DNA from: Glaucostegus cemiculus
Taxonomy: Eukaryota
Length of the DNA: 64,000 bases
Reading direction: 5' to 3'
Assembly: GCA_976551045.1 (NCBI GenBank)
Contig: CDPCPM010000077.1
Coordinates: 7,068,001 to 7,132,000 of the forward strand
Both the position numbers and the translations under genes were made by a program. The notes beneath the pieces were generated by a model, which was not told where the DNA came from, did no database searches, and saw only the letters and a program-made list of their open reading frames with translations. Below are positions 1,283 to 62,800 of this stretch, piece by piece; positions within the stretch are counted from its first letter, which is position 1; the number at the start of each line of letters is the position of its first letter.

Positions 1283-2849
1283 CTGAAATAGTCAGCAGGC
1301 CCGACCGTATCTGTGGGAGGAGAAACGGAGTGGATGCTTGACCTGAAATATTCACTGTATCTTTTCCCAGAAATGCAGCCTGACCTGCAGTGTAGTTACA
1401 GCACTTTCCGTTTATGGAAGTTAGAGTTGCCTCTTTAATTAATGCCGATTTTGTTGCCTGAGAATTTACTAATTGACTTGGCCTGTCCCTAACCTTAACC
1501 TTCCTCTCCTACTAAAACAACTATAAAATCTTTCCCATCATGGTTACAGTCTTCTTCACCGTATTCCCTAATCTCATTGCTTGTAGTAACTTGATCTGTG
1601 GAGTACGGTATTTCGCTCCTGTGCATGCTGAATGTGTATATGGTGGTGACAATAAAACTGATTCTGATTCTAGTAGGGAACAGTTTTGGGGGGAGATGTG
1701 CATGCAAATTAATTATTTTATATTACCTCAGGATCTTTAATGCTGGAAATCTGAAATGAAAAAGACCAGAAGTGCGAGTATCTGAAATTGTTAAGTTCAA
1801 AGTTGCGTCCAGAAGACTCTTGCAATGTCTCTAACAGAAGATGAGGTGGTGTTTCTTGAGCTCATGTTGGTCTTCAGTTGACAGGGTTGGAGTCTGAAGA
1901 CTGAGATGGGGTGGGATGGACGATGAAAGCTGATTATCCAATCTGTGTTTGTTGTCCCTGATGAACACTGAATAGTAACCTGTGTGGTAAAATGTATAAT
2001 TAATAATGTACTGTACTCAGTGCTCACAATGTAGTCTCCTCTATCTTAATAGTTTTTTGTATTAGTCCATTCAAGCAATTGCCAAACTTTCCTAAGGTGT
2101 GTAAATAAATAAAAATAATATTGCCTTCCAAATTCATTCTATGCAAAAATGGAGCGTTGAGGATTTTTTTTCCACAGAAGGCATTATTGCACTACCATTC
2201 TGACCCTGAACTTGGACTGCTTCATCTCAGTGTTGGTACTGAGTGAAACCATTTCACAACATACCACTGTTATTTATGTGTAACCTAAATGTGGCCTCAG
2301 ACAGACCCACTAATAGATTCTAAGCTCCTCCTTCAAATTTGATGGGCACCCAGGGATCAAAGTTCTGTTCACGTGGAGAGGGACAGCGGAGATTTGGGAC
2401 TCTAAAATCTTACAGCCCGTTGGAACCTATTTATTCTCCCCACATTCCCATCAACTCCTCCCACCCCTCCCCCCCCAAGATTCTACCATTCACCTCTACA
2501 TAAGGAGCAATTTGCAGTGGTCAATTAATTTACCAACCCTTACATGGATGATACACTGTAGACATCCTTAAGATCCTGGTGGAGTCTAGCTCCAGTGACT
2601 TGCAAGATACTTGACAACTTGCAGGAGAAAGCAGCCCAGTACCCTGTAAGTAGGGACTCAAGCCTGGAGGACACAGTGAACTAGTACCCCCTTCACCAAG
2701 TTTGCTTCCTTCACTGCTAGTGTATTGTGGTTGCTGTGTGTACCATCAACAAAATACACTACTGCTATTTGTCAAGTCTACTGCCATAGCATTTCTCAAA
2801 TCCTTGACCCCTACCATAAAGGAGAATAAGAACAGCAGGCACATAAGAC

Positions 2850-3300
2850 CACCACAAGGAAGGCGCACCAGTCTTTTTACTGTCTTAGGAGGTTGGAGAG
2901 GTTTGGCTTGTCACCGAACACTCCAACAAACTTCTGTAGATGTACTGTTGGAAGTTTGCATCATGGTCTGGTGTGGCAATTCGAATGCGCAGGAATGTAA
3001 GAAGCTACAGAGAGTAGTAGACTCTGCCCAGTACATCATGGGCACATCCTCCCCACCATTATAGTATCTATAGGAGACACTGCCTCAAGAAGGCAACATC
3101 CATCATCAAAGATCCCCACCATCTGGGCCACGCCATCTTCTTGCAGCTACCATCAGTCAGGAGGTACAGAAGCCTGAAGTCCCGCACCACCAGGTTCAAG
3201 GACAGCTGCTTCCCTTCAACTAGTCATGGGAACCAACCTGCACAACCCTTATCACTACCTCAAGTACTTGTGCATATGACAGTAAACTTGACTTTGACCA
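2850..3300 (+). mobile_element. Rex1/Babar-like LINE 3' end
   Basis: Translation CIMVWCGNSNAQECKKLQRVVDSAQYIMG...IIKDPHHLGH...LPSVRRYRSLKSRTTRFKDSCFP, then a catatgacagtaaacttgactt tail. Confidence 0.8.
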
Positions 3301-5339
3301 CATCTGAAGGTTCCCCTCAATATTTAATACCATGCTGACTTGGAAATATATTGCCATCTCTTCCTTGTCACTGAGTATAAATACTGTAACCCCCTAGTGT
3401 GACCAGAAGGAGTGCAGCAATTTAAGAAGTTGTCATCTCCACCTTTCCAAGTTAAAGATGGGTATCAATGCTGATTCAAGTTAATGATGGCTATATAACC
3501 TGGAAAAGTATTGGCTGTCAAACCTGATACATGGAAAAGGCATGGAATTTGGATAAACCTACTGTACTAACTTAGACTAATGCAAAGACCTGACATTTTA
3601 GATTTTCCGTGGTGTGAAGATTGGCGATTATGTTTTCATTAAAGGTGTGGAAATTGCCTGTGTGTGAATTCTTTTTTGCAGCGTAACGATTGCACAGCAG
3701 TTACCACATAGACCGCTCTTGATTTAATGGCAAAGAGAGCCAAGACACTTGGAGATTGTTCTGCTCCACAGACTTAACACACTTGGGGACACATGCAATT
3801 TTTGCCTGCAGTCATTTCCCTTAGGCTCCCACTGTATCGGCTTACCCTGCTCCTTCCCGCTACTTTCCCTCTTGATTCCCACAACATCTCTCCCTTGTGA
3901 GTCTACCGACTGTTACCACCTGTCCTCAATGAGGCCACTTCACAATTGCCAGTCACTCTCCCCCACCCTCACCCACATCCACCCTAAAATCTGACCCCCT
4001 CCCCCCAGCTGTGGACAGGCCGAGACCAGGGTCCCCCAGCTGTGGGCAGGCCCAGAACTGGGACCTCTGTCTTGGAGTGCACTGGGAACTGGAAGTACAA
4101 CAGGAGAGTAAAAAAATATGAAAACATTCCACAAAACAGCCAATTTGGTTTGAAATACCTGGTGTAACTATTTTGTTTGTGAATAAAGACAATGGAGTAG
4201 GCAAACCCAAGTCCCCAGTGCGCAGGCTCCAATTCCTTTCCCGGCTGAGGCAAGTCCATCCGAGCAATCTGTAGGATACGTACCTGGGCTTTGGACCATC
4301 CTCTGGACACTGGTCTCTATTCCATGTTGATGCCCACACGTCTGTAGCAGTATTGGCTGTTACCTACAGAGAGTAATGCAGGCCAATCATTCTAATGCTT
4401 GCCTGGTGATGCTAAGCAAAGATCTATGACCCTGGTTAGCTCTCCACCAAAAAAGACCTCTGGAATCCTGCCTTATCTTCATTCTCAGTAAAGCATGAGA
4501 CGGATGGTTAATTCTCTGATTATGTTGAAAGGATTGGAAAGGGACCAAAAGTGACTTCCCTAAACCACATGTGGGACTGAAATAGTGTAACGTCAGCACA
4601 AACGGTGCAAGTGAATCATACTTCTGAGCTAAATACAAAACAGTTCACAGGGCTTCTTTTGAAGTTTCCCATTTCATTTCCGTTTATGTCTGACATTTCA
4701 TGTAATTGGTTCCTGTTTTCTCCTGCCCATTTCTCACTCCTAACCAACATGTCCTTTTCTTCCCCTCAACCTAATTTCCTTTATTTTAACTCCCTCCCAC
4801 CCCTCCCGTGCCCCACCAAAACATTCCCTTTTTATGAGGGCAGGAGCAGGATCCTTCTTGTTCCACAGGCTCCTGCGTCGTTTTGGTTACTACACCCAGT
4901 TTACCATTCTTGTTCGTGTGTGACATAATCAGCTGTGACTGCAGTGCAGTCAAGATAAAGATTTCGGCCTAAGCCAGAGCCTCTCGTTGCCCAGTTAACC
5001 TTAGTGCAACCTGTAGCAATCACCGTGTGGTATTTGGAAGTATTTGTCATCCTTCTCATTCATTTGCAGTTCTGCCGAGACCAGATAACTCAGAACATAA
5101 TCAGTGCAGAACCAAGACGTAACTTTTCGAGTCTGCTTCACCATTCAGCTAATACTAATCACCCTCCACTTTATCACCCTGTCCTGGTATCCCTTGAATT
5201 TCTGACTGTCCAAAAACTCATATCAATTTTATTCTTGGTGACTAAGCAGAGGTAGCCTTCTGCAGTAGGAAATTCTGAAGGTTTACAAACCCGTGAATAA
5301 AGAAATTTCTCCACATCGTAGTCCTAAATATTGACACAT

Positions 5340-5800
5340 GATCCTCTCCTGCTCCCCGTCTGTCCCTTTTCTCTGTCTTCCGGATCTACCCAGTTCCTCC
5401 TACACCCACCCCCCCAGCCCCCCATCATCCTTTTTCATTCCCCTCCTCCATCTGCCCATCGCTGACACATTCCTCCCACTGGGTCCCTGTACCCCACTGT
5501 TCCCTTCTGCCCTCCCCACCTCCTTTAGTTGGTTCCATGCTCCACCTTCTGATCAGATTCCATCACCTGCAGCCCTTTTGTTGCCTCCATCTACCACCTC
5601 CCAGCCTCTGTCACTATTTCCACTCTTCCTTCCTCTATCTACCTATAAGCCCTCCTCACCTGGATCCACTAATCACTTGTAGCTCTTGCCTCACCCCTTC
5701 TTTCAGTTCGGATAAAGCATCTTGACCCGAAACATTGACTGTCCATTCCCCTTCACAGATGTTGCCTGACCCACTGAGGTTCTCCAGCAGTTTTTTGTTT
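5340..5800 (+). mobile_element. Older Penelope-like 3' region and pLTR
   Basis: C/T-rich segment homologous to 51400-51780. It ends in a decayed hammerhead (5704-5741, CAGTT CGGATAA...GAAA CATT GACTG) and cagatgttgcctgacccactgag. Confidence 0.7.
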
Positions 5801-22479: not shown

Positions 22480-23060
22480 TGCCATCCTTATTCTTCTTAT
22501 GAGTCCCTTGGGATTGAGGATGATTTGCTTCAACTCCTGATCTCTGGGTTCTGAAGTGACTGATGCAACTGGTAGACTCTACTGGAGATGGGGGCAGGAG
22601 ATGCCTGATGAATCAAACGGATGTTCTTTTGCAAGCTGTTGCACTCCTTATGTTGTTTGTAAAGAGTGCAACACCTCGCAAACTACCCACTCACCTGACT
22701 CATCAGGCATCTTTTGCCCCACCTCTGGTTTCTGTATGTTCCTGAGACATGCCTTTGAGGTTTTCAGTGCCATCCCAAAAGCTCCTCCACTTTGAGTGGC
22801 CGTGGGCTAGGGTTCCCACGATTCGATGGGGAACTCTTAAACATGCTCTACTGGACCTGGAATTACCATGGCTGTTGGCACCAGACTTGTCCTCCAGCGG
22901 GTCCTTGCTAAAGGACTTAAAGTGCACTCATTCCAATTACAGGGCCTCGAAAGAGTCCTGTATTGTTATTGACAAGGAGGCATTGAGAACATCCTTGCAT
23001 CTTTTCCTCTGTCCATCTGGTAACCTTTACCTGTGATAGAGCCTGGAAGAGACCCATTAA
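22480..23060 (-). mobile_element. RTE (BovB-like) LINE 3' fragment, interrupted by the 18S fragment
   Basis: Minus-strand translation RLPDGQRKRCKDVLNASL (about 22973-23026) resembles the RTE GGQRKRFKDxLKASL motif. It continues past the insert as ...TLAHGHSKWRS. Confidence 0.7.
22848..22970 (-). pseudogene. 18S rRNA fragment (decayed)
   Basis: Minus strand reads AATAACAATACAGGACTCTTTCGAGGCCCTGTAATTGGAATGAGTGCACTTTAA...GTCTGGTGCCAACAGCCATGGTAATTCCAG. This is vertebrate 18S sequence running into the universal GTGCCAGCAGCCGCGGTAATTCCAG motif, with substitutions. Confidence 0.92.
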
Positions 23061-23939
23061 CAGTACAGGAGCTGCAGGAAATTAGAATGATACTTGGTGT
23101 TCCTTGAATAATACTATAGTAACGCTATAGTTTTCTTGTAGTATTTTAACTCACTAATTGTTATCCAAGTTCCTGGCTATGCCAATGTTTGCAAAATTAG
23201 ACTTTTGAAGTGTTTAAAAATCCATCTGAGTAAATCTGAGGTGTTTGTACACTGCTTTCACTCCCAATATTTCAACATGAACAGAGTATCTTCTTTAGTC
23301 TTTTGTTTCTGCAGAGAATAAAGCTAAACATTTTATACCCTGTATAAACCCATTTTCAAGGTGTAGGATAGCTTCCAACACAAAAGGAAAGCTATTTGGC
23401 TGTAGCTTTTATTTCCCTTCTCCTTCTACCTCCTGTTCCTTTAGGTGGATTTTTTTAATATATCAATTTATTCATGGGATGTGAGATTCACGGGCAAAGT
23501 TAGTACTTCGTTCTCAAGCCTGATTGCCTTTGAAGGTGTGTTGATGGGCTGTTGCCTTAAATCGCTGCTGTGTGCACACCACAGGTCTGCTCAGATATAA
23601 AACTCAAACCCTGATCTGGCCAATCCAGACTGAACAAGCCTGCGGATTTGTAATTTTTTCTTTGTTTGATTTGACCTGACCTGACCCGACCCAATCCATA
23701 GGTGTTTGCAAGCAAGTGACTATGCTACACATACATTGCTATTGTTCAAAAGGAAAGGATGTGGGTTAGTGCTAAGCAAGTCATCTTGATCTGTGTAAGG
23801 TACTGAACTGGGCCAGCATGACATGACCCAACCTAACCCCATCGTCCTATCAGAACAGACACCTGACCCAGCTCCAACCAACGGATACAGTTGGATCCCA
23901 TTGCACTGGGGTCAGGTAACTGGGCTGTAGCTTGTACAC

Positions 23940-24250
23940 AAGAAAGACTGCAGATGTTGGAAATCTGGAGCAGCACACAAAGCTCTGGAGGAACTCAGCA
24001 GTCAGGCAGCACCTGTGGAGGGAAATGAAAATTTAACGTTTTGGGCCGAGACCTTCCATCAGGATTGGAAAGAAAAAGGGGAGACAGCCAGTATAAAACC
24101 GCCTGCCCCCACCCTTTTATTCTGGCTTCTGCCCTCTTCCTTTCCAGTCCAGATGAAGGGTCTCAGCCTGAAATGCCAACTATTCATTTCCCTCCACAGA
24201 TGCTGCCTGACCTGCTGAGTTCCTCCAGCACTTTGTGTGTTGCTGCAGTT
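23940..24250. mobile_element. Penelope-derived inverted pLTR pair (MITE-like palindrome)
   Basis: ctggaggaactcagcagtcaggcagcacctgtggagggaaatgaa is inverted relative to ttcatttccctccacagatgctgcctgacctgctgagttcctccag. Two degenerate hammerheads lie at 24030-24067 (-) and 24145-24182 (+). Confidence 0.8.
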
Positions 24251-28138: not shown

Positions 28139-28235
28139 GGAGAATCTCCCAAGCCGTTTCAAATTTAAGGAGTATTGCCCGATGGTTTTTAGGAATCTGC
28201 GAGAGAGATTTTGCATCGATGATCAGGATTACCAG
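28139..28235 (+). CDS. PIP4K2B: PI5P 4-kinase type-2 (beta-like), coding exon 3 (97 nt)
   Basis: Acceptor ttttttgtag|G completes the AAG codon; encodes [32 protein letters not shown]; donor CAG|gttggt. ENLPSRF and DYQ are beta-type residues. Confidence 0.96.
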
Positions 28236-33893: not shown

Positions 33894-35576
33894 TAAATGG
33901 TTGGTGTCTTTAGAATAATGCAAGAGATACATGTAAGGACGAGGAATAAAATGCGGGGGGGAATAAATGAAATTAGATTGTCATAACACAGCAGGTGAGG
34001 CTATTTTAATACTAGGGACAGGAGAATTCGTTTGGGATCAGTTCAGCTACACTGTAGCCTGGAGAGTGCCTTCAGGAAATAGTGGGTGGAAAGTAATTGA
34101 ATTGGAGAACCGCACCATTGTACGCCAAATAATCTCTTTCACTACAGGAATGGGGTGTAATTGGATGGAGGGTTATACCAAAAATTGCAAACCCTTTAAT
34201 TCAGAGAAAGGAATTCAGAGTCCAGTACAACAGCTGGGAATAAGCTAGTCAAATAGACACTGAAATAAAAGGCTGATATTTTAAGTGGTAGCCATGAAAC
34301 TGTCAGATTGTTGTACAAACCCATCTGGTTCAATAATGTCCATTGGGAAAGGCAATTGTAGACAAAGAATAAATAGTTTTCCCACAAAGGAGGCTACTTG
34401 GCCCATCAAATGCATACTAGCTTCAGTCCTTTCCTCCATAACCCTGCAAATTATTTTCCCTGAAGTGCTTGCCCGATTCCTTTTTGAAAATCTGCCACCC
34501 TTCTTTGACCTGGCCTAGAAATGACCGCAGACTGCCCTCAGAAACGACCTAGCGAGTTGTTCAAGGGCAGTTAAGGATGGGTAATAATGTCAGAGTCATG
34601 CCTGCATCCCATGAATGAATGAAGAAATAGCTTTATACGCCAGTTGTGATTGGGTTGCTTGTGAAATCCTGAATTGCAGTATGTGATAGACTAGATCTTT
34701 TAGATAATTGTTTCATGAACCTTGTGTTTGAACATTTCTCCCAAATTGGAATCTGTGTTTGTGCAAGGGTGGAGATAAAAACTTCTCTTGTTTATTTAAG
34801 TGTTTGACCAGTATTGTGTTTAAATCACCTTTATTGACATTTCAAAGTCCACTTGTTTTGTATGTATTTTGTCTGTCTAGATACAAGTCTGCTTCACTGA
34901 AACATATCCTCAAGGGAACTGACAGTAAAGACTGTTAAATCAGTGTGTTCACTACAGCAGAATTTCCAGACTTACTGCTTTGTAGTAAGCATAGGCAAAC
35001 AATTTGAATTGGATATATTGTTATGTTGAAGTACTATACTTCACATTTGTTGTGCCTATCCCAACATATGCTGGTTCTGTCATTTTAAGAAGTTCAAAAG
35101 GAGAATTTACGAAGCCAGTGAGGTGTGTTTGAATGTATTCACTGTTGTAATGTATCAAATCTGGCAGCCGGTGACTGTAACTCTGTTCCATAAATGACAG
35201 TAAGGTAGTGACCAGCTATTCTATTTTGCTTGAATAAAAACGGAAAATGCCAGAGGTTCTCAAGCAGGGCTGGCAGTACCCGTGGAGAGAGAAGCAGGGA
35301 TAACAATTCAGATTGATGAAATGGCTAAAGTAGTAATCTTGTTTCTCTCTCCACAGATGCTGTCTGACCTGTTGAGTATCTCCTGCAGTTTCTGTTTTTA
35401 TTTCAGATTTCTAGCACCTCTGCTTTTAGAACCTATTTTGCTTAGTGATATTTGTTGAGGAATGAATATTGGTAGAGAGACCCCCTACCCCCAAACCCCT
35501 TCTGAACAAACAAAAAGTTCCCAGCTTTAGACAGTGTGAAATTCTGCTATTGCACTTCCGAACACATTATATGAAT

Positions 35577-42446: not shown

Positions 42447-42955
42447 TCTGGAGCAATACACATAAAATGCTGGAGAGACTCAGCAGGTCAGGCAGCATCC
42501 ATGGAGGGAAATAAAAAGTCGATGTTTCGGGCCAAAACCCTTCATCGGGACTGGAAAGGAAGAGGGCAGAAGCCAGAATAAGAAGGTCGGAGGAGGAATA
42601 CTTGTAATCAGGGGACAGGTGAGTTCAGGTGATAGGTGAGTCCAGGTGAGAGGGGGAAGGTAGATGGGGAAGTTGTAATAAGCTGAGAAGTGATGGGTAG
42701 AAGAGGCAACAGGCCAAAGAAGAAGGAATTTGGTAGGGCAGAGGACCATGGAATAAAGGATGGGGGAGGGGAGGAGATGGGCAGGTCATCAAGGCGAGGG
42801 AAGGGAGCTACAGGAATGAGGGAAGTCAAAGGAGCGGGGGGGGTGGGGGGAGAGAAAAAGAAGGGGTGAGGTTACCAGAAGTTAGAGAAATCGATGTTGA
42901 GGCCATCAGGTTGGAGACTCCCAATGCGGAATATGAAATGTTGTTCAACAGATAC
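42447..42955 (-). mobile_element. Penelope-like element 3' fragment, same family as 50901-51790
   Basis: Minus strand encodes EQHFIFRIGSLQPDGLNIDFSNFW*, followed by the same 3' region and pLTR. Hammerhead remnant at 42516-42553 reads CAGTC CCGATGA AGGGTTTTGGCCC GAAA CATC GACTT. Confidence 0.85.
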
Positions 42956-45226: not shown

Positions 45227-46947
45227 ATATTTACTCTAACCATTGGCTGACTGCATTTCTACTGAGATTCATATTGAATTTTAGGATTGTGCCTCTTTAA
45301 TCTGGATTTTTCCACTATAGGAAATAGTTTTGCCAAATCCACCCCAGTTACACATCTCAACCATCAGAGCTAACCAAATAAAAGCTTGAATCTTTTGAGC
45401 TCTGTTGATTCCCAAAAGCCTGCACTGTACAGTACAAGGCCAATATTTCTTCCTGGGTATTGGCCCCAACCAGGCAGGCTGACAAGGACTGGAATGGTAA
45501 GGTAACAGACTTGAGCCCAAGCTAAAATGGTGAGAGTTTGAGAGAGTGAGGTTGCATTGCTGAAGTCTGGAGCTGGGATTTTGGGGATGGTGGGGTGTAG
45601 GAAGACAGAAAAGCAGTAGGAGAGAGGGAGAGCATGAGGTGGTAAAGGCTTGCAAGGGGGAATAAGAGGGGAGAGCAATGGATGAGTCAGAGGATGGTGG
45701 ATTTGAGAGTTACAGAAGATTAATAGATTAACTAAATATCTAGATTGTAGATTGCACTGGAGGTATCTGTACCATACTAGAATGCAAAGGTTTCAAAATT
45801 CCCCTTACTGTTTACCCACATCAAGGTTTACCAGCCACCCACACACCTTTTCCAGCATGCATTTCATAATATTATTTTGCTAAATAATTCTTAAAGCCGT
45901 ATAACTGCCCCAGTCCTTTCCACTTATCACCCTTGATAAGACTTTATTGCTTCATCTTTTCAATGGCTGACTTATCTAGTTTAAAGTAAATAACTGCTGA
46001 CATGCTTTATATATTGCCTCCCTGCCGTTCCCCCTGTTAGTAATCAGACACCTGCTGTCTACTCACAAGGGCATTGGAAAGAACAAGCACTTTTAAGAAT
46101 CACACCAGTTATTAATTTCACAGTTAACTCATTTCACAATTTCATTTCCAAAGGGGATTAGTGAAACATCATGGAGCACCAGAAAACATATTAATATCGC
46201 AGTCATATCAAATAAATCATCATGCTTTTAATGTTAATGAACACTTTCTGTTGACAAGCTGAAGTTAAGTTGTTGACAAGTTTTCTTTGGTTATTGTTGA
46301 GCTGAACCACACTATTGAACAATCCTGTAACCCTTGCAATGGTACCTGTTGGTAGACAAAAGAATATGCTGTTTGACTTATCAGTGTTTGAAACTGCTGT
46401 GTAAATAAAATGTGGCTAGTTTTATTCCGAGCTTTCCAATATCCTTTTTGGAAATTAATTAAGCATCCTGATTGTGAAGATTTGGCATTTCCTCTCTGCA
46501 GTGGAGTTATTTTTAAGGTGCATTCAGTAAAAAGCACCCTTATTATGGGGTGTGTCTAGTGACTCCCAGTGCATCAGTTGTAACTGTAAGCTAAATACCA
46601 GCAATTGAGTGCAATCCACAACATGAAATGTTGCAAGGAAGAACCCAGAATGTCCTCCCAAAAAACTCCCTCTGTAGATGTTGCCTAACCCACTGAGTTC
46701 CTCCAGCAGTTTATTTTTTGCTCCAGATTCCAGCATCTGCAGCCTCTTGTGTCTCCATCTAGCTAACAAAGTGGTAGTTTCAGAAGGCAGTTCCACTACT
46801 TCTAGGGAAGCCCAACAGAAGAGTAGGAAACTGCAGCAGAAATTGTGCTGCGGGTATTGGCAATTAAGGGTGCGGGGCAAGTCCTCCCACTCCTGCCCTC
46901 CTCACCCCTCCCACCCCTTCCCTGTTCATCTGAGCTGCAATTCCTGA

Positions 46948-49570: not shown

Positions 49571-50979
49571 TAAATGTATTATTCACCTTGGCCAATGGGC
49601 AGGTAATAAGCGCAAAGTTCTCAGCTGACAACTTGGAAATGTGTTAGACAATGAAGAGGATAGCGAAGGGCACAGACTAACTGGTAAAATACACTGAGGT
49701 GTGGCAGCTGAAATTTAAAACAAGGATGTGAATTGATTGCAGAAGAGCTGGAGGAAAGAGACGATATAAATAAATAGCATGGTTTCGTGGATGCAGAAGA
49801 ACCTATAGGCATATGAGCACACACCTATGAAGCTGTTTACAGAAGCTGTTGACTCTAGCTTTTGAGTAATGGCAGAGAGCACAGAAGAGGAGGTTCTGCT
49901 AAATCTTCATGAAGCACTTGATAGACCTCAACTGGAGTATTGTTTCAATTTGGAAGATTGTCAACAACTATAACTATTTACAATTACAACATTTGAAAGA
50001 CGTTTGGACAGGTACATAGATAGGAAAGGTTTAGAGGCATATAGGCCAAATGCCGGGTAATGGATTAGCTCAAATAGACAACTTGACAAGTTGGGCCAAT
50101 GGGTTTATTTTCCGTGTTGTATAACTCTGACTCTTACGTACTAAAATCGCAACAAGGTTGAGAGAATTCAGTTACATAGAAAGACTGGAAATGCTGGTGG
50201 TGTTCTGCTGGAAACAGGGAATAGAATAGAGGTGTTCAAAATCATGGAGGGTCTTGATTGAGTAAATAAAAAGAAACTGGTTCATCTGGTGAAAGGATTG
50301 ATCCATTGAAGTTTACACATTTAATCTGATTGCCAAAAGAAATGGAGGTACTGGAAGAAACTTGTTTATGCAACTAAGATCTGGAAATTGCCAAAGTTGT
50401 GGAAGAAGGTTCAATGCAAATTGCTTAAACGCTTGATGTTTTGTTTTAAAATGGGCCATAGGAAAAGTGCAGACTGAGATAGCAGACAGGGAGGTACCTC
50501 TCCCAAGGATCTGAGGTGAACAGCCTCCTGTAGCATGCCAACTTAACCGAAGTTTGGACACTTCCCTCTTGTGTTGAAGCAGTTAATAGGGAGCAGTGCA
50601 GTACTGTAGGGTGGTGCAATGAAATTCCTTCACGCAAGCAAAGAATGGTGTACATGACAGTAAACTAATCTGAAATATGCAGTTTCCCTCAGTGTTGAAA
50701 GGAAAATCATTGCAAACACAGACACTGTTGTTGACACTGAGTTTGACCATTGGGTGAGGCAAGCAGCAAGGGGAGTTGTCCTTTAAAATGGTTTGCTGAC
50801 ATTCTAGCCTAGATGTTAGTTGGCATGCCTGAGTTGCCCAGTACTGCAGCAATGTGCCTCATTCACCATATAGGTAAAGTCTCCAGTAGTATATCCAGAG
50901 CACAAGAAATTCTGCAGATGCTGGAATCTGGAGCTGGAGGAACTCAGCAGGTCAGGCAGCATCCATGGAGGGAAATAAA

Positions 50980-51017
50980 CAGTCAACGTTTCAGACCAAG
51001 ACCCTTCATCAGGACTG
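50980..51017 (-). ncRNA. Minimal type I hammerhead ribozyme motif (Penelope-type)
   Basis: Minus strand reads CAGTC CTGATGA AGGGTCTTGGTCT GAAA CGTT GACTG: 5-bp stem I, intact CUGAUGA/GAAA core, palindromic minimal stem III, and stem II weakened to G-U pairs. Confidence 0.7.
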
Positions 51018-51686
51018 GAAGGGAAGAGGGCAGAAGCCAGAATAAGAAGGTGGGGGGAGGGGGAGCAGCACATGCAGGCAGGGGACAGGTGAGTTCAGGT
51101 GATAGGTGAGTCTGGAGTCCTTTGGAGTGACGGAGTCCTTCGCTCTGTCTACTGCAACCCCAGACCTCCCAGTGGCCACCAACTTCAATTCCACATCCCA
51201 CTCCCATACTGACGTGTCTATCCACGGCCTCCTCTGCTGCCACATTGAGGTCAGGCGCAGGCTGGAGGAACAACACCTTGCATTCCGCCTTGGGAGTCTC
51301 CAACCTGATGGCCTCAACATTGATTTCTCTAACTTCAGGTAACCCCACCCTTTCTTTTTCTTACCCAGCCCCCCAACTCCTTTGTCTTCTCTTATTCCTA
51401 TGGCTCCCTTCCCCAACCTTGATGACCTGCCCATCTCCTCTCCTCCCATCCCCCATCCTTTATTCCATGGTCCACTGCCCTCTCCTACCAGATTCCTCTT
51501 CCTCCAGCCTTTGGCCTCTTCTACTCATCACCTCTCAGCTTATTACATCTTCTCCCCCTCCCCCACTCACTACCTTCCCCCCCCTCACCTGGACTCACCT
51601 ATCACCTGAACTCACCCATCCCCTGCCTGTGTGTTCTCCTCCCCCTCCCCCCACCTTCTTATTCTGGCTTCTGCCCTCTTCCCTTC

Positions 51687-51724
51687 CAGTCCTGATGAAG
51701 GATCTCAGCCCGAAGCATCGACTG
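51687..51724 (+). ncRNA. Degenerate minimal hammerhead motif
   Basis: CAGTC CTGATGA AGGATCTCAGCCC GAAG CATC GACTG. GAAA is mutated to GAAG. Confidence 0.55.
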
Positions 51725-52699
51725 TTTACTTCCCTCCGTAGATGCTGCCTGACCTGCCGAGTTCCTCCAGCACTTTTTGTGTATATCCAGAGCCTGTGGT
51801 TGAGATGTATTCAGCCTCTGTTTATACAAAGACCCAACGTCTGTTTGGGTATCCCTTCCTGGAATTGTGCTTTGTAAGTACTTCTTACTGGATTTTGTTT
51901 GAATGTGAGCTGTGTAACATCATCCTCAATGTTTTTCTTCGACCACATGGTTCCATAATTGGTTGAATTGGCTGTTTGCATTATCTCATACTGAGCCACG
52001 AGAGTGGGACTTGAACTCACAGTCTTCTACGACTAACGTGTAACTCGATGAGCTACATGATGCCGAGTAAGTTTAAACCAGGAAAATTGAAGTGGGTTTA
52101 ACCTCACTTTATACAGAAATTGGAGGAAAGAGTGTGAATGTTATTTCCAAAGCTTTCAGTGTATGAAAGTTCAGTTGCATCACACCAGAAATAATAAAAA
52201 CCTTCCATACGACAGACCAACATACCTCTACCCTTTGTTGGTGAGAATACTGGGCCCCTGACACAGTCATATTTACAGACCTGCTGTCTTTTCAACTAAT
52301 AACCTGGTAATTTTATGTCCTTCTTAAAAAAAAATTCTGATTTATGACGGTTGACACAGGGCAGCTAACTAGGAAACACTGGCCTTTTCTTCATCTTTCT
52401 TTCTCACATGCAGTTGATCATCTTGCCCAGCATGTTTGTCATTATTCTCCCTAAAGGATTTAAGGGGTTGGGAGGCGAGGGGGTGGCTGGCTTTCAGCTT
52501 GATGCCAAAAATAGTCTCCAGTGCAAAATTTCCAAGATGTAGGTTTGCAGAAGATAATAACCGCCTGTTGACAGTAACATTTAATAACTTTCCTTCACAA
52601 TGAATTTAGTTTAGTACTAAACACAGATTCAACCAGACTGAAAACTCATGCCTGTTTATATTCCTTTGGGGATATTGCTCATGAAAATCTAAATTTTAC

Positions 52700-59285: not shown

Positions 59286-59438
59286 AACTCGGTAACAAGG
59301 AGTGCCCCCCTAAACAGTGACGCACAGAACCGGATGGGAGCTCGCTTCTTAACCACGTACGACAAGAGATTCGTCATTAAAACCATAACTAGCGAAGATG
59401 TAGCAGAGATGCACAATATTTTAAAAAAATACCATCAG
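59286..59438 (+). CDS. PIP4K2B: PI5P 4-kinase type-2 (beta-like), coding exon 4 (153 nt)
   Basis: Acceptor ttctttctttcag; encodes NSVTRSAPLNSDAQNRMGARFLTTYDKRFVIKTITSEDVAEMHNILKKYHQ, including the ATP-binding VIK lysine; donor CAG|gtaggc. Confidence 0.96.
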
Positions 59439-62607: not shown

Positions 62608-62800
62608 ATAATCTACTGGAGGAACTCAGCGGGTCGAGCAGCAGTTGTGGAAGGAAAGGAACCCTGCATGGTTTCGAGCCAAAATGTCGATAATTCCACC
62701 GCTCCCCGCTCCTCCACAGATGCTGCTCGACCCACTGAGTTCCTCCAGTATGTTGTTTGTTGCTCCAGATTCCAGCATCTGCAGTCTCTTTTGTCTCCAT
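62608..62800. mobile_element. Short Penelope-pLTR-derived palindromic element
   Basis: tactggaggaactcagcgggtcgagcagca is inverted relative to tgctgctcgacccactgagttcctccagta. Related, more decayed copies lie at about 1285-1415, 35235-35425, 46670-46760 and 53155-53240. Confidence 0.7.

Follow-up and report, generated by a model that had tools for sequence, protein, structure and literature searches.

A truncated Penelope-like element with decayed minimal hammerhead motifs in a lipid kinase intron, and a second, telomere-associated family in the same genome

The 64-kb stretch of Glaucostegus cemiculus DNA analysed here (hereafter the window) carries part of a plus-strand lipid kinase gene resembling PIP4K2B, of which one exon at 28139-28235 (+) and another at 59286-59438 (+), the latter with a PF01504 match, delimit an intron of 31 kb. 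For the downstream exon, the best matches were PIP4K2B structures, which scored 70 bits against 64 for alpha, a margin of 6 bits. The Penelope-like element (PLE) considered here had been initially annotated as lying inside a kinase intron, and its position between these two exons agrees with that. An intron of the kinase gene also holds a decayed 150-nt fragment of 18S rRNA (22843-22992, minus strand).

The insertion occupies 50902-51780 and forms one unit made up of a tail, an inverted arm, a junction and a forward copy, bounded by a 13-bp direct repeat that is identical on both sides (50889-50901 and 51781-51793) and is read as a target-site duplication, of 11-13 bp if the edge bases belong to the element. 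The tail (50902-50932, minus strand) is 31 nt long, is found only at the left end and, in full-length copies, continues into the element's 5′ part. It is followed by an inverted partial copy, the pseudo-LTR arm at 50933-51112 (-), by a 24-nt junction to the forward copy (51113-51136), for which no convincing match was found in 11 long copies, and by a GIY-YIG endonuclease end (51137-51342, +) that comprises the last ~65 codons and the stop codon at 51340-51342. The remainder (51343-51780, +) consists of a pyrimidine-rich 3′ region and the forward pseudo-LTR, whose arm spans 51592-51771. Both arms measure 180 nt and are 90% complementary, as expected from the inverted pseudo-LTRs of about 180 bp previously described around the remnant. 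The reverse transcriptase (RT) is absent from this copy, and the remnant begins downstream of the GIY and YIG motifs; searched alone against Pfam, its 76 aa gave only a chance match and none that was significant. Over 58 aa, the frame shows 62% identity to the homologous protein P0006 (residues 394-451), of which residues 355-432 pass the GIY-YIG Pfam cut-off, and the earlier assignment to the C-terminal end of a GIY-YIG frame is thus borne out. With the arms, the tail, the target duplication and the RT and GIY-YIG domains of the family, both the Penelope-like class and the proposed anatomy of the element check out.

All six copies of the hammerhead motif reported by the initial annotation (5704+, 24030-, 24145+, 42516-, 50980-, 51687+) were recovered at their places, with 29-34 of 38 bases matching its consensus, and no other site in the 64-kb window reached 24 of the 38 bases. 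The minimal type I motif at 50980-51017 (-) is, as had been claimed, the only one in the window with an intact core (CUGAUGA, GAAA and UH kept); it also keeps the palindrome and stem I, three of its four stem II pairs are G-U, the cut is predicted between 50985 and 50984, and its strand is antisense to the host gene. A structure descriptor matched once in the window, at this copy, and had no match in 20 block shuffles. The other motif of the insertion (51687-51724, +), which would be the sense-oriented one in the host pre-mRNA, has a broken core, with A15.1 changed to G and the palindrome lost, and the two motifs are divergently oriented. Elsewhere in the window, a second pair of back-to-back pseudo-LTR stubs, with a flank repeat of 12 of 14 bases, lies at 23937-24240, and both of its motifs (24030-24067, minus, and 24145-24182, plus) are broken; a truncated family copy at 42456-42946 (-) bears a motif at 42516-42553 in which U4 has become C, and an older, more decayed stub at 5700-5795 (+) contains the motif at 5704-5741. 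Shorter stubs at 35346-35401, 46667-46742 and 62616-62784 match the pseudo-LTR only in its portion downstream of the hammerhead.

No Rfam hammerhead was found in the window at E≤5, but as the Rfam models do not cover the minimal form, this result does not count against the motif. The predicted hammerhead fold of the 50980 copy reached -3.0 kcal/mol, compared with -10.5 for a perfect natural copy, and was no better than that of shuffled sequences (z -0.02), and a co-fold of two copies gave non-catalytic duplexes in a program that cannot represent the active dimer. Neither motif of the insertion is predicted to cut, and both are damaged and likely inactive, since the 50980 core is antisense with a weak stem II, the core of the sense copy is broken and the arms would pair with each other; the folding programs behind this prediction model neither the active dimer nor protein help. 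Additionally, because the copies are inverted, a tandem dimer within one RNA is impossible at this locus.

A longer natural copy of the family has 15 homologues, the best named of which come from batoids (70-73% identity) and from the whale shark (60%), in keeping with the chondrichthyan origin initially assigned to it. PLE-type RT motifs are present in the linked copies L066 and L089-L108 and in the homologues P0003 and P0006, and longer genomic copies have a C-x4-C-x2-C linker between the RT and the endonuclease, the latter being a C-terminal GIY-YIG domain with two inner cysteines and CCHH. Judged by the linker rather than by a tree, the family is a Neptune-type PLE. Four metagenome or assembly proteins (P0010, P0012, P0013 and P0015) are 44-48% identical to the linker-endonuclease part, and P0012 also has an RT very similar to that of the window family; such likeness would be compatible with horizontal transfer or with its absence. 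In a first look at the 2.85-Gb genome, 39,559 candidates were obtained for the endonuclease end, 9,137 for the RT and 189 for the 5′ part, counts that came from different query types and are meaningful only as a trend, which, by falling in this order, indicates a heavily 5′-truncated family. No intact ORF was found among the 150 of the 9,137 RT candidates that were scored, in which the longest open frame had 449 aa, and all the long copies translated were broken. In one locus, L134, two direct pseudo-LTRs surround a broken ORF (pLTR-ORF-pLTR); there the tail comes next after the motif, and a likely start codon lies about 140 nt past the cut site. A sister subfamily (L140-L159) carries C rather than A9 in its core, with 162 exact pattern matches and none in the control, and its stem II is maintained while loop II differs between copies. 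A further subfamily is marked by A at position 7 of the core.

The form of the motif was compared with the published one. Most of the family and the 50980 copy have the minimal PLE hammerhead, namely CUGANGA, GAAA and UH, an extra base after position 9, G10.1-C11.1, a palindromic 15.2-16.2 and no helix III, so that, with a stem I of 5 bp and a palindrome standing for helix III, the original identification fits. A tight motif pattern, which pools two subfamilies, had 1,926 exact matches in the genome and none in the control. Decay was then scored in 85 projected copies picked by protein match, reduced to 84 by removal of one duplicate and to 69 by removal of 15 diverged or short ones; copies L002-L030, chosen by likeness to the motif region, were excluded. 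Enhanced conservation of the core, on which the initial annotation had made its identification depend, is absent within the family: non-CpG core positions were changed in 44 of 678 cells (6.5%) versus 208 of 3,684 in the flank (5.6%; Fisher p 0.37), flank columns above 15% change being left out (all 72 flank columns give 352 of 4,885). Inserted copies decay neutrally, and therefore this absence does not refute the motif. CpG positions were changed in 18-41% of copies, and the catalytic G12, which lies in a CpG, was lost in 28 of 68; the family thus shows how fast CpG decay removes this base. Stem covariation, the other expectation, was found between families and not within the window family, where only a U-G/U-A alternation at one pair was seen: seven of nine stem pairs change on both sides across eight hand-picked copies, nearly all of this signal coming from the two rows of the telomeric family described below. 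The core is intact in 15 of the 69 copies, together with the palindrome in 8 and with all stems paired as well in 4. With this retention of the core, one intact core in six copies is expected by chance, the probability of at least one being 77%.

We read 50902-51780, with a probability of about 90%, as a single truncated insertion of an abundant PLE, likely the product of one event, likely decaying without function, and with neither motif predicted to cut. By analogy with the biochemistry in PMC11167929, endonuclease nicking would have been followed by target-primed reverse transcription initiated at two neighbouring sites, which would leave one end with a tail and the other without. The minimal hammerhead of the parent element lies within the pseudo-LTR, some 140 nt upstream of the likely start codon, and, again by analogy, its cleavage of the tandem precursor RNA would be weak and would need a dimer or the help of the element protein. 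The window element itself is likely a neutral relic.

Three other explanations of the unit were weighed. One of them, improbable, holds that the 180-bp hairpin has its effect not as a ribozyme but as intronic double-stranded RNA that influences editing or splicing; folding of read-through RNA predicts pairing of 165 of the 180 arm bases on the host (plus) strand, which would suit such a role, and 174 of 180 on the minus strand, but the exons on either side are 22 kb and 7.5 kb away, and such pairs are common in the genome, the second pair at 23937-24240 being one. Still more doubtful is a working ribozyme kept at 50980 on an antisense RNA and affecting the kinase gene. The joint survival of its core, palindrome and stem I, in a family where few copies keep as much, speaks for it, but one intact core in six has the high chance given above, the G-U pairs of stem II and the fold no better than shuffles argue against function, and the motif has no same-sense tandem partner nearby, its arm pairing instead with the other arm. 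The host-ribozyme reading was rejected. The least probable explanation, a non-autonomous fold-back element of MITE-like or DIRS-like kind that would move as one piece and whose arms would be genuine terminal inverted repeats, would account for the 180-bp arms at both ends and the target duplication, but is largely refuted by arm lengths and inner junctions that vary between loci (the arms of L099 reach about 1.6 kb), by the 35 of 45 endonuclease-selected loci whose copies have no inverted arm, and by the description of the same layout for PLE insertions in the available part of PMC8557442. In 5 of these 45 loci the distance from the forward copy to an inverted stub is no more than 100 nt, and in 10 it is no more than 1.2 kb. 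A retrozyme reading was also discarded, as the copies at this locus are inverted or single, with no head-to-tail tandem units. The truncated PLE insertion thus stands as the preferred reading; beyond the CpG decay of G12, what it shows is that a known PLE feature is present in one further lineage.

A second PLE family was found outside the window. A search pattern allowing other stem II sequences gave 10,325 matches in the genome and 12 in the control, and 9,731 of them exactly repeated a single minimal hammerhead whose stems I and II are different and whose lowest-energy fold is the hammerhead shape. This motif belongs to a short non-coding unit of 1.1-1.2 kb, arranged in tandem and totalling about 11 Mb as estimated from the 9,731 motif copies. 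Contig C4 has one such unit per 1.1-1.2 kb between 8.7 kb and a point past 136 kb, and in its first 7.4 kb truncated units alternate with pure telomeric tracts. The polarised arrays extend over C4:1-136000 (L165-L192, L217-L218) and occur at the ends of 14 other contigs (C10, C30, C34, C40, C64, C80, C99, C119, C138, C142, C188, C192, C217 and C235). Within them lie coding copies with two intact frames, ORF1 of 855 codons and ORF2 of 740 codons (L191:6330-9028 and 1682-3901; L221:334, minus strand), which the short derivative outnumbers by about 20 to 1. ORF1 ends in an esterase-like part with a weak Pfam match (E 0.019, below cut-off), and ORF2 bears RT and GIY-YIG domains over the Pfam cut-offs (26.4 versus 22.6 bits for GIY-YIG) and is 35% identical to P0006. 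In a 401-nt piece of the RT, the 40 copies scored of 1,692 candidates were all 100% identical. The hammerhead of the coding copy has a real helix III and 501 exact matches, which include an array of more than 1 Mb at the right end of C64, whereas that of the short unit is minimal; no Rfam hammerhead matched in seven loci of this family or in L191:6200-6500. A 740-aa protein from a sequencing-run assembly, P0016, is 71% identical to ORF2 and likely represents a relative in another species.

The point at which units of this second family enter telomeric tracts is a single fixed internal site that lies about 530 nt downstream from the hammerhead and reads like the C-rich telomeric strand; the resulting element-to-repeat junction has 469 exact matches, with none in the control. 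Contig ends standing in for chromosome ends, 98 of the 100 junctions listed (of the 469, on 15 contigs) lie within 0.82 Mb of a contig end with telomere polarity; of the other two, the first lies some 0.95 Mb into C166 and the second, in C192, has the reverse orientation. Contigs C10 and C142 start with at least 5 kb of telomeric repeats. The genome has a single telomerase RNA gene (L219, C104:1927644-1928168, minus), and the bases just 3′ of its template are those found where telomeric tracts meet truncated units. Matches of 4-8 bases to the telomerase RNA were seen in 7 of 23 distinct inner junctions, with a chance of 0.25% per position, and 6 of these 7 have at least one base that does not come from the element. 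The same bases also recur inside variant telomeric tracts, and one internal copy, L223, ends in a short tract followed by them.

These observations tip the balance slightly towards a young, endonuclease-bearing (EN+) PLE with an Athena/Terminon-like telomeric life, that is, a telomere-extending vertebrate retroelement that would build polarised subtelomeric arrays of up to about 1 Mb with its 1.1-1.2 kb derivative. In such a cycle, the element RNA would anneal through its internal reverse-complement telomeric heptamer to the G-rich telomeric 3′ end and be copied onto the chromosome end, leaving 5′-truncated ends that telomerase would heal before the next copy attaches; judging from the junctions, priming on telomeric 3′ ends and healing by telomerase in turn are likely. 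Part of this telomeric reading is that a dimer-type and a monomer-type hammerhead would occur together. Some observations fit it poorly: 16 of the 23 inner junctions have no telomerase-RNA match of at least 4 bases, C217 and C119 begin inside an array with no telomeric tract in their first 4-5 kb, the esterase match is weak, and internal, more diverged and hence older copies exist, so that the family is not confined to chromosome ends. The rivals considered for these arrays are endonuclease-driven insertion into telomeric tracts, of which the insect SART and TRAS elements are a precedent, growth of telomeric arrays by recombination, and copy numbers inflated by assembly. If the telomeric reading is true, an intact, high-copy vertebrate PLE alternates with telomerase at chromosome ends; its RT-endonuclease could be cloned, its priming site is defined and its hammerhead exists in two natural forms, so that the role of PLE hammerheads becomes directly testable.

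Compared with known systems, every feature of the window element has already been described for metazoan PLEs in the available parts of PMC4209133 and PMC8557442. The former reports minimal, mostly solitary hammerheads in metazoan pseudo-LTRs, with opposite-strand pairs of motifs separated by 100-700 bp and little activity even in dimeric form, and the window family shares with that type the 5-bp stem I, one extra base between 9 and 10.1, G10.1-C11.1 and the palindromic 15.2-16.2 without helix III, as well as the mostly single copies and the opposite-strand pairs. However, its helix II has 4-5 bp versus 7-8 bp in the Schistosoma families of that paper, whose available text names no cartilaginous fish, and no report of a shark or ray hammerhead was found in the literature judged by titles or the beginning of abstracts. 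According to the available part of PMC8557442, Neptune and Nematis elements combine the RT, a C-x2-5-C-x2-C linker and a GIY-YIG domain with CCHH, and typically show an inverted 5′-truncated copy and a one-sided tail of 30-40 bp; the linker, the CCHH endonuclease, the 5′ truncation, the inverted copy and the tail are common to the window family. Unlike them, the window copy keeps the endonuclease end only and has no microsatellite target, and no intact member of its family was found among those scored. The Poseidon PAc element of the green anole, as described in the available text of PMC11167929, likewise has a hammerhead in the pseudo-LTR near the ORF start and a tail whose source lies just inside the element's 5′ part, but it belongs to another clade, without the linker, and its start codon lies inside the hammerhead rather than about 140 nt downstream. 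Its hammerhead cuts only with protein and is dispensable for insertion in vitro.

For the telomeric family, the nearest known systems are the telomere-attaching PLEs described, in the sources available, from rotifers, fungi, plants and protists, in which attachment with hammerheads is known for endonuclease-free elements (PMC6431247, PMC8557442). It shares with Athena, Coprina and Terminon, as far as the available parts of these two papers go, the polarised head-to-tail chains, the telomere-capped 5′-truncated copies, the 3′ ends joined through a reverse-complement telomeric stretch and the hammerhead. In contrast to the EN-minus Athena and Coprina, its GIY-YIG domain is intact and fused to the RT and its host is a vertebrate; the attachment site adjoins the hammerhead in Athena, Coprina and Terminon and lies about 530 nt downstream here, and the roughly 20:1 excess of a short non-coding derivative is a further difference from them. 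An esterase-like extra ORF is shared with known PLEs, esterase ORFs being reported in Neptune-like PLEs of fish and molluscs in the available part of PMC5408684. Endonuclease-free telomeric PLEs were not detected among vertebrates according to the available portion of a 2026 preprint, and a vertebrate telomeric PLE had no precedent in the literature judged by titles or the start of abstracts, a scope that did not extend to Repbase or Dfam. In the literature searched, each part of the telomeric family has a precedent, while their combination in a vertebrate has none known, and preprint supplements may list the species and families. The non-LTR retrozymes of bioRxiv 10.64898/2026.07.22.740005, whose available text describes tandem hammerhead units in vertebrates, including the one chondrichthyan sampled, resemble its short unit in being tandem and non-coding, with a type I hammerhead each, and in deriving from PLE ends, and in Xenopus their multimers are enriched at chromosome ends or centres. 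The window element, unlike retrozymes, is not tandem, and the short unit is set apart from them by its length of 1.1-1.2 kb versus 51-972 bp (under a period limit of 1,000 in that preprint) and by its joining to telomeric repeats at a fixed site.
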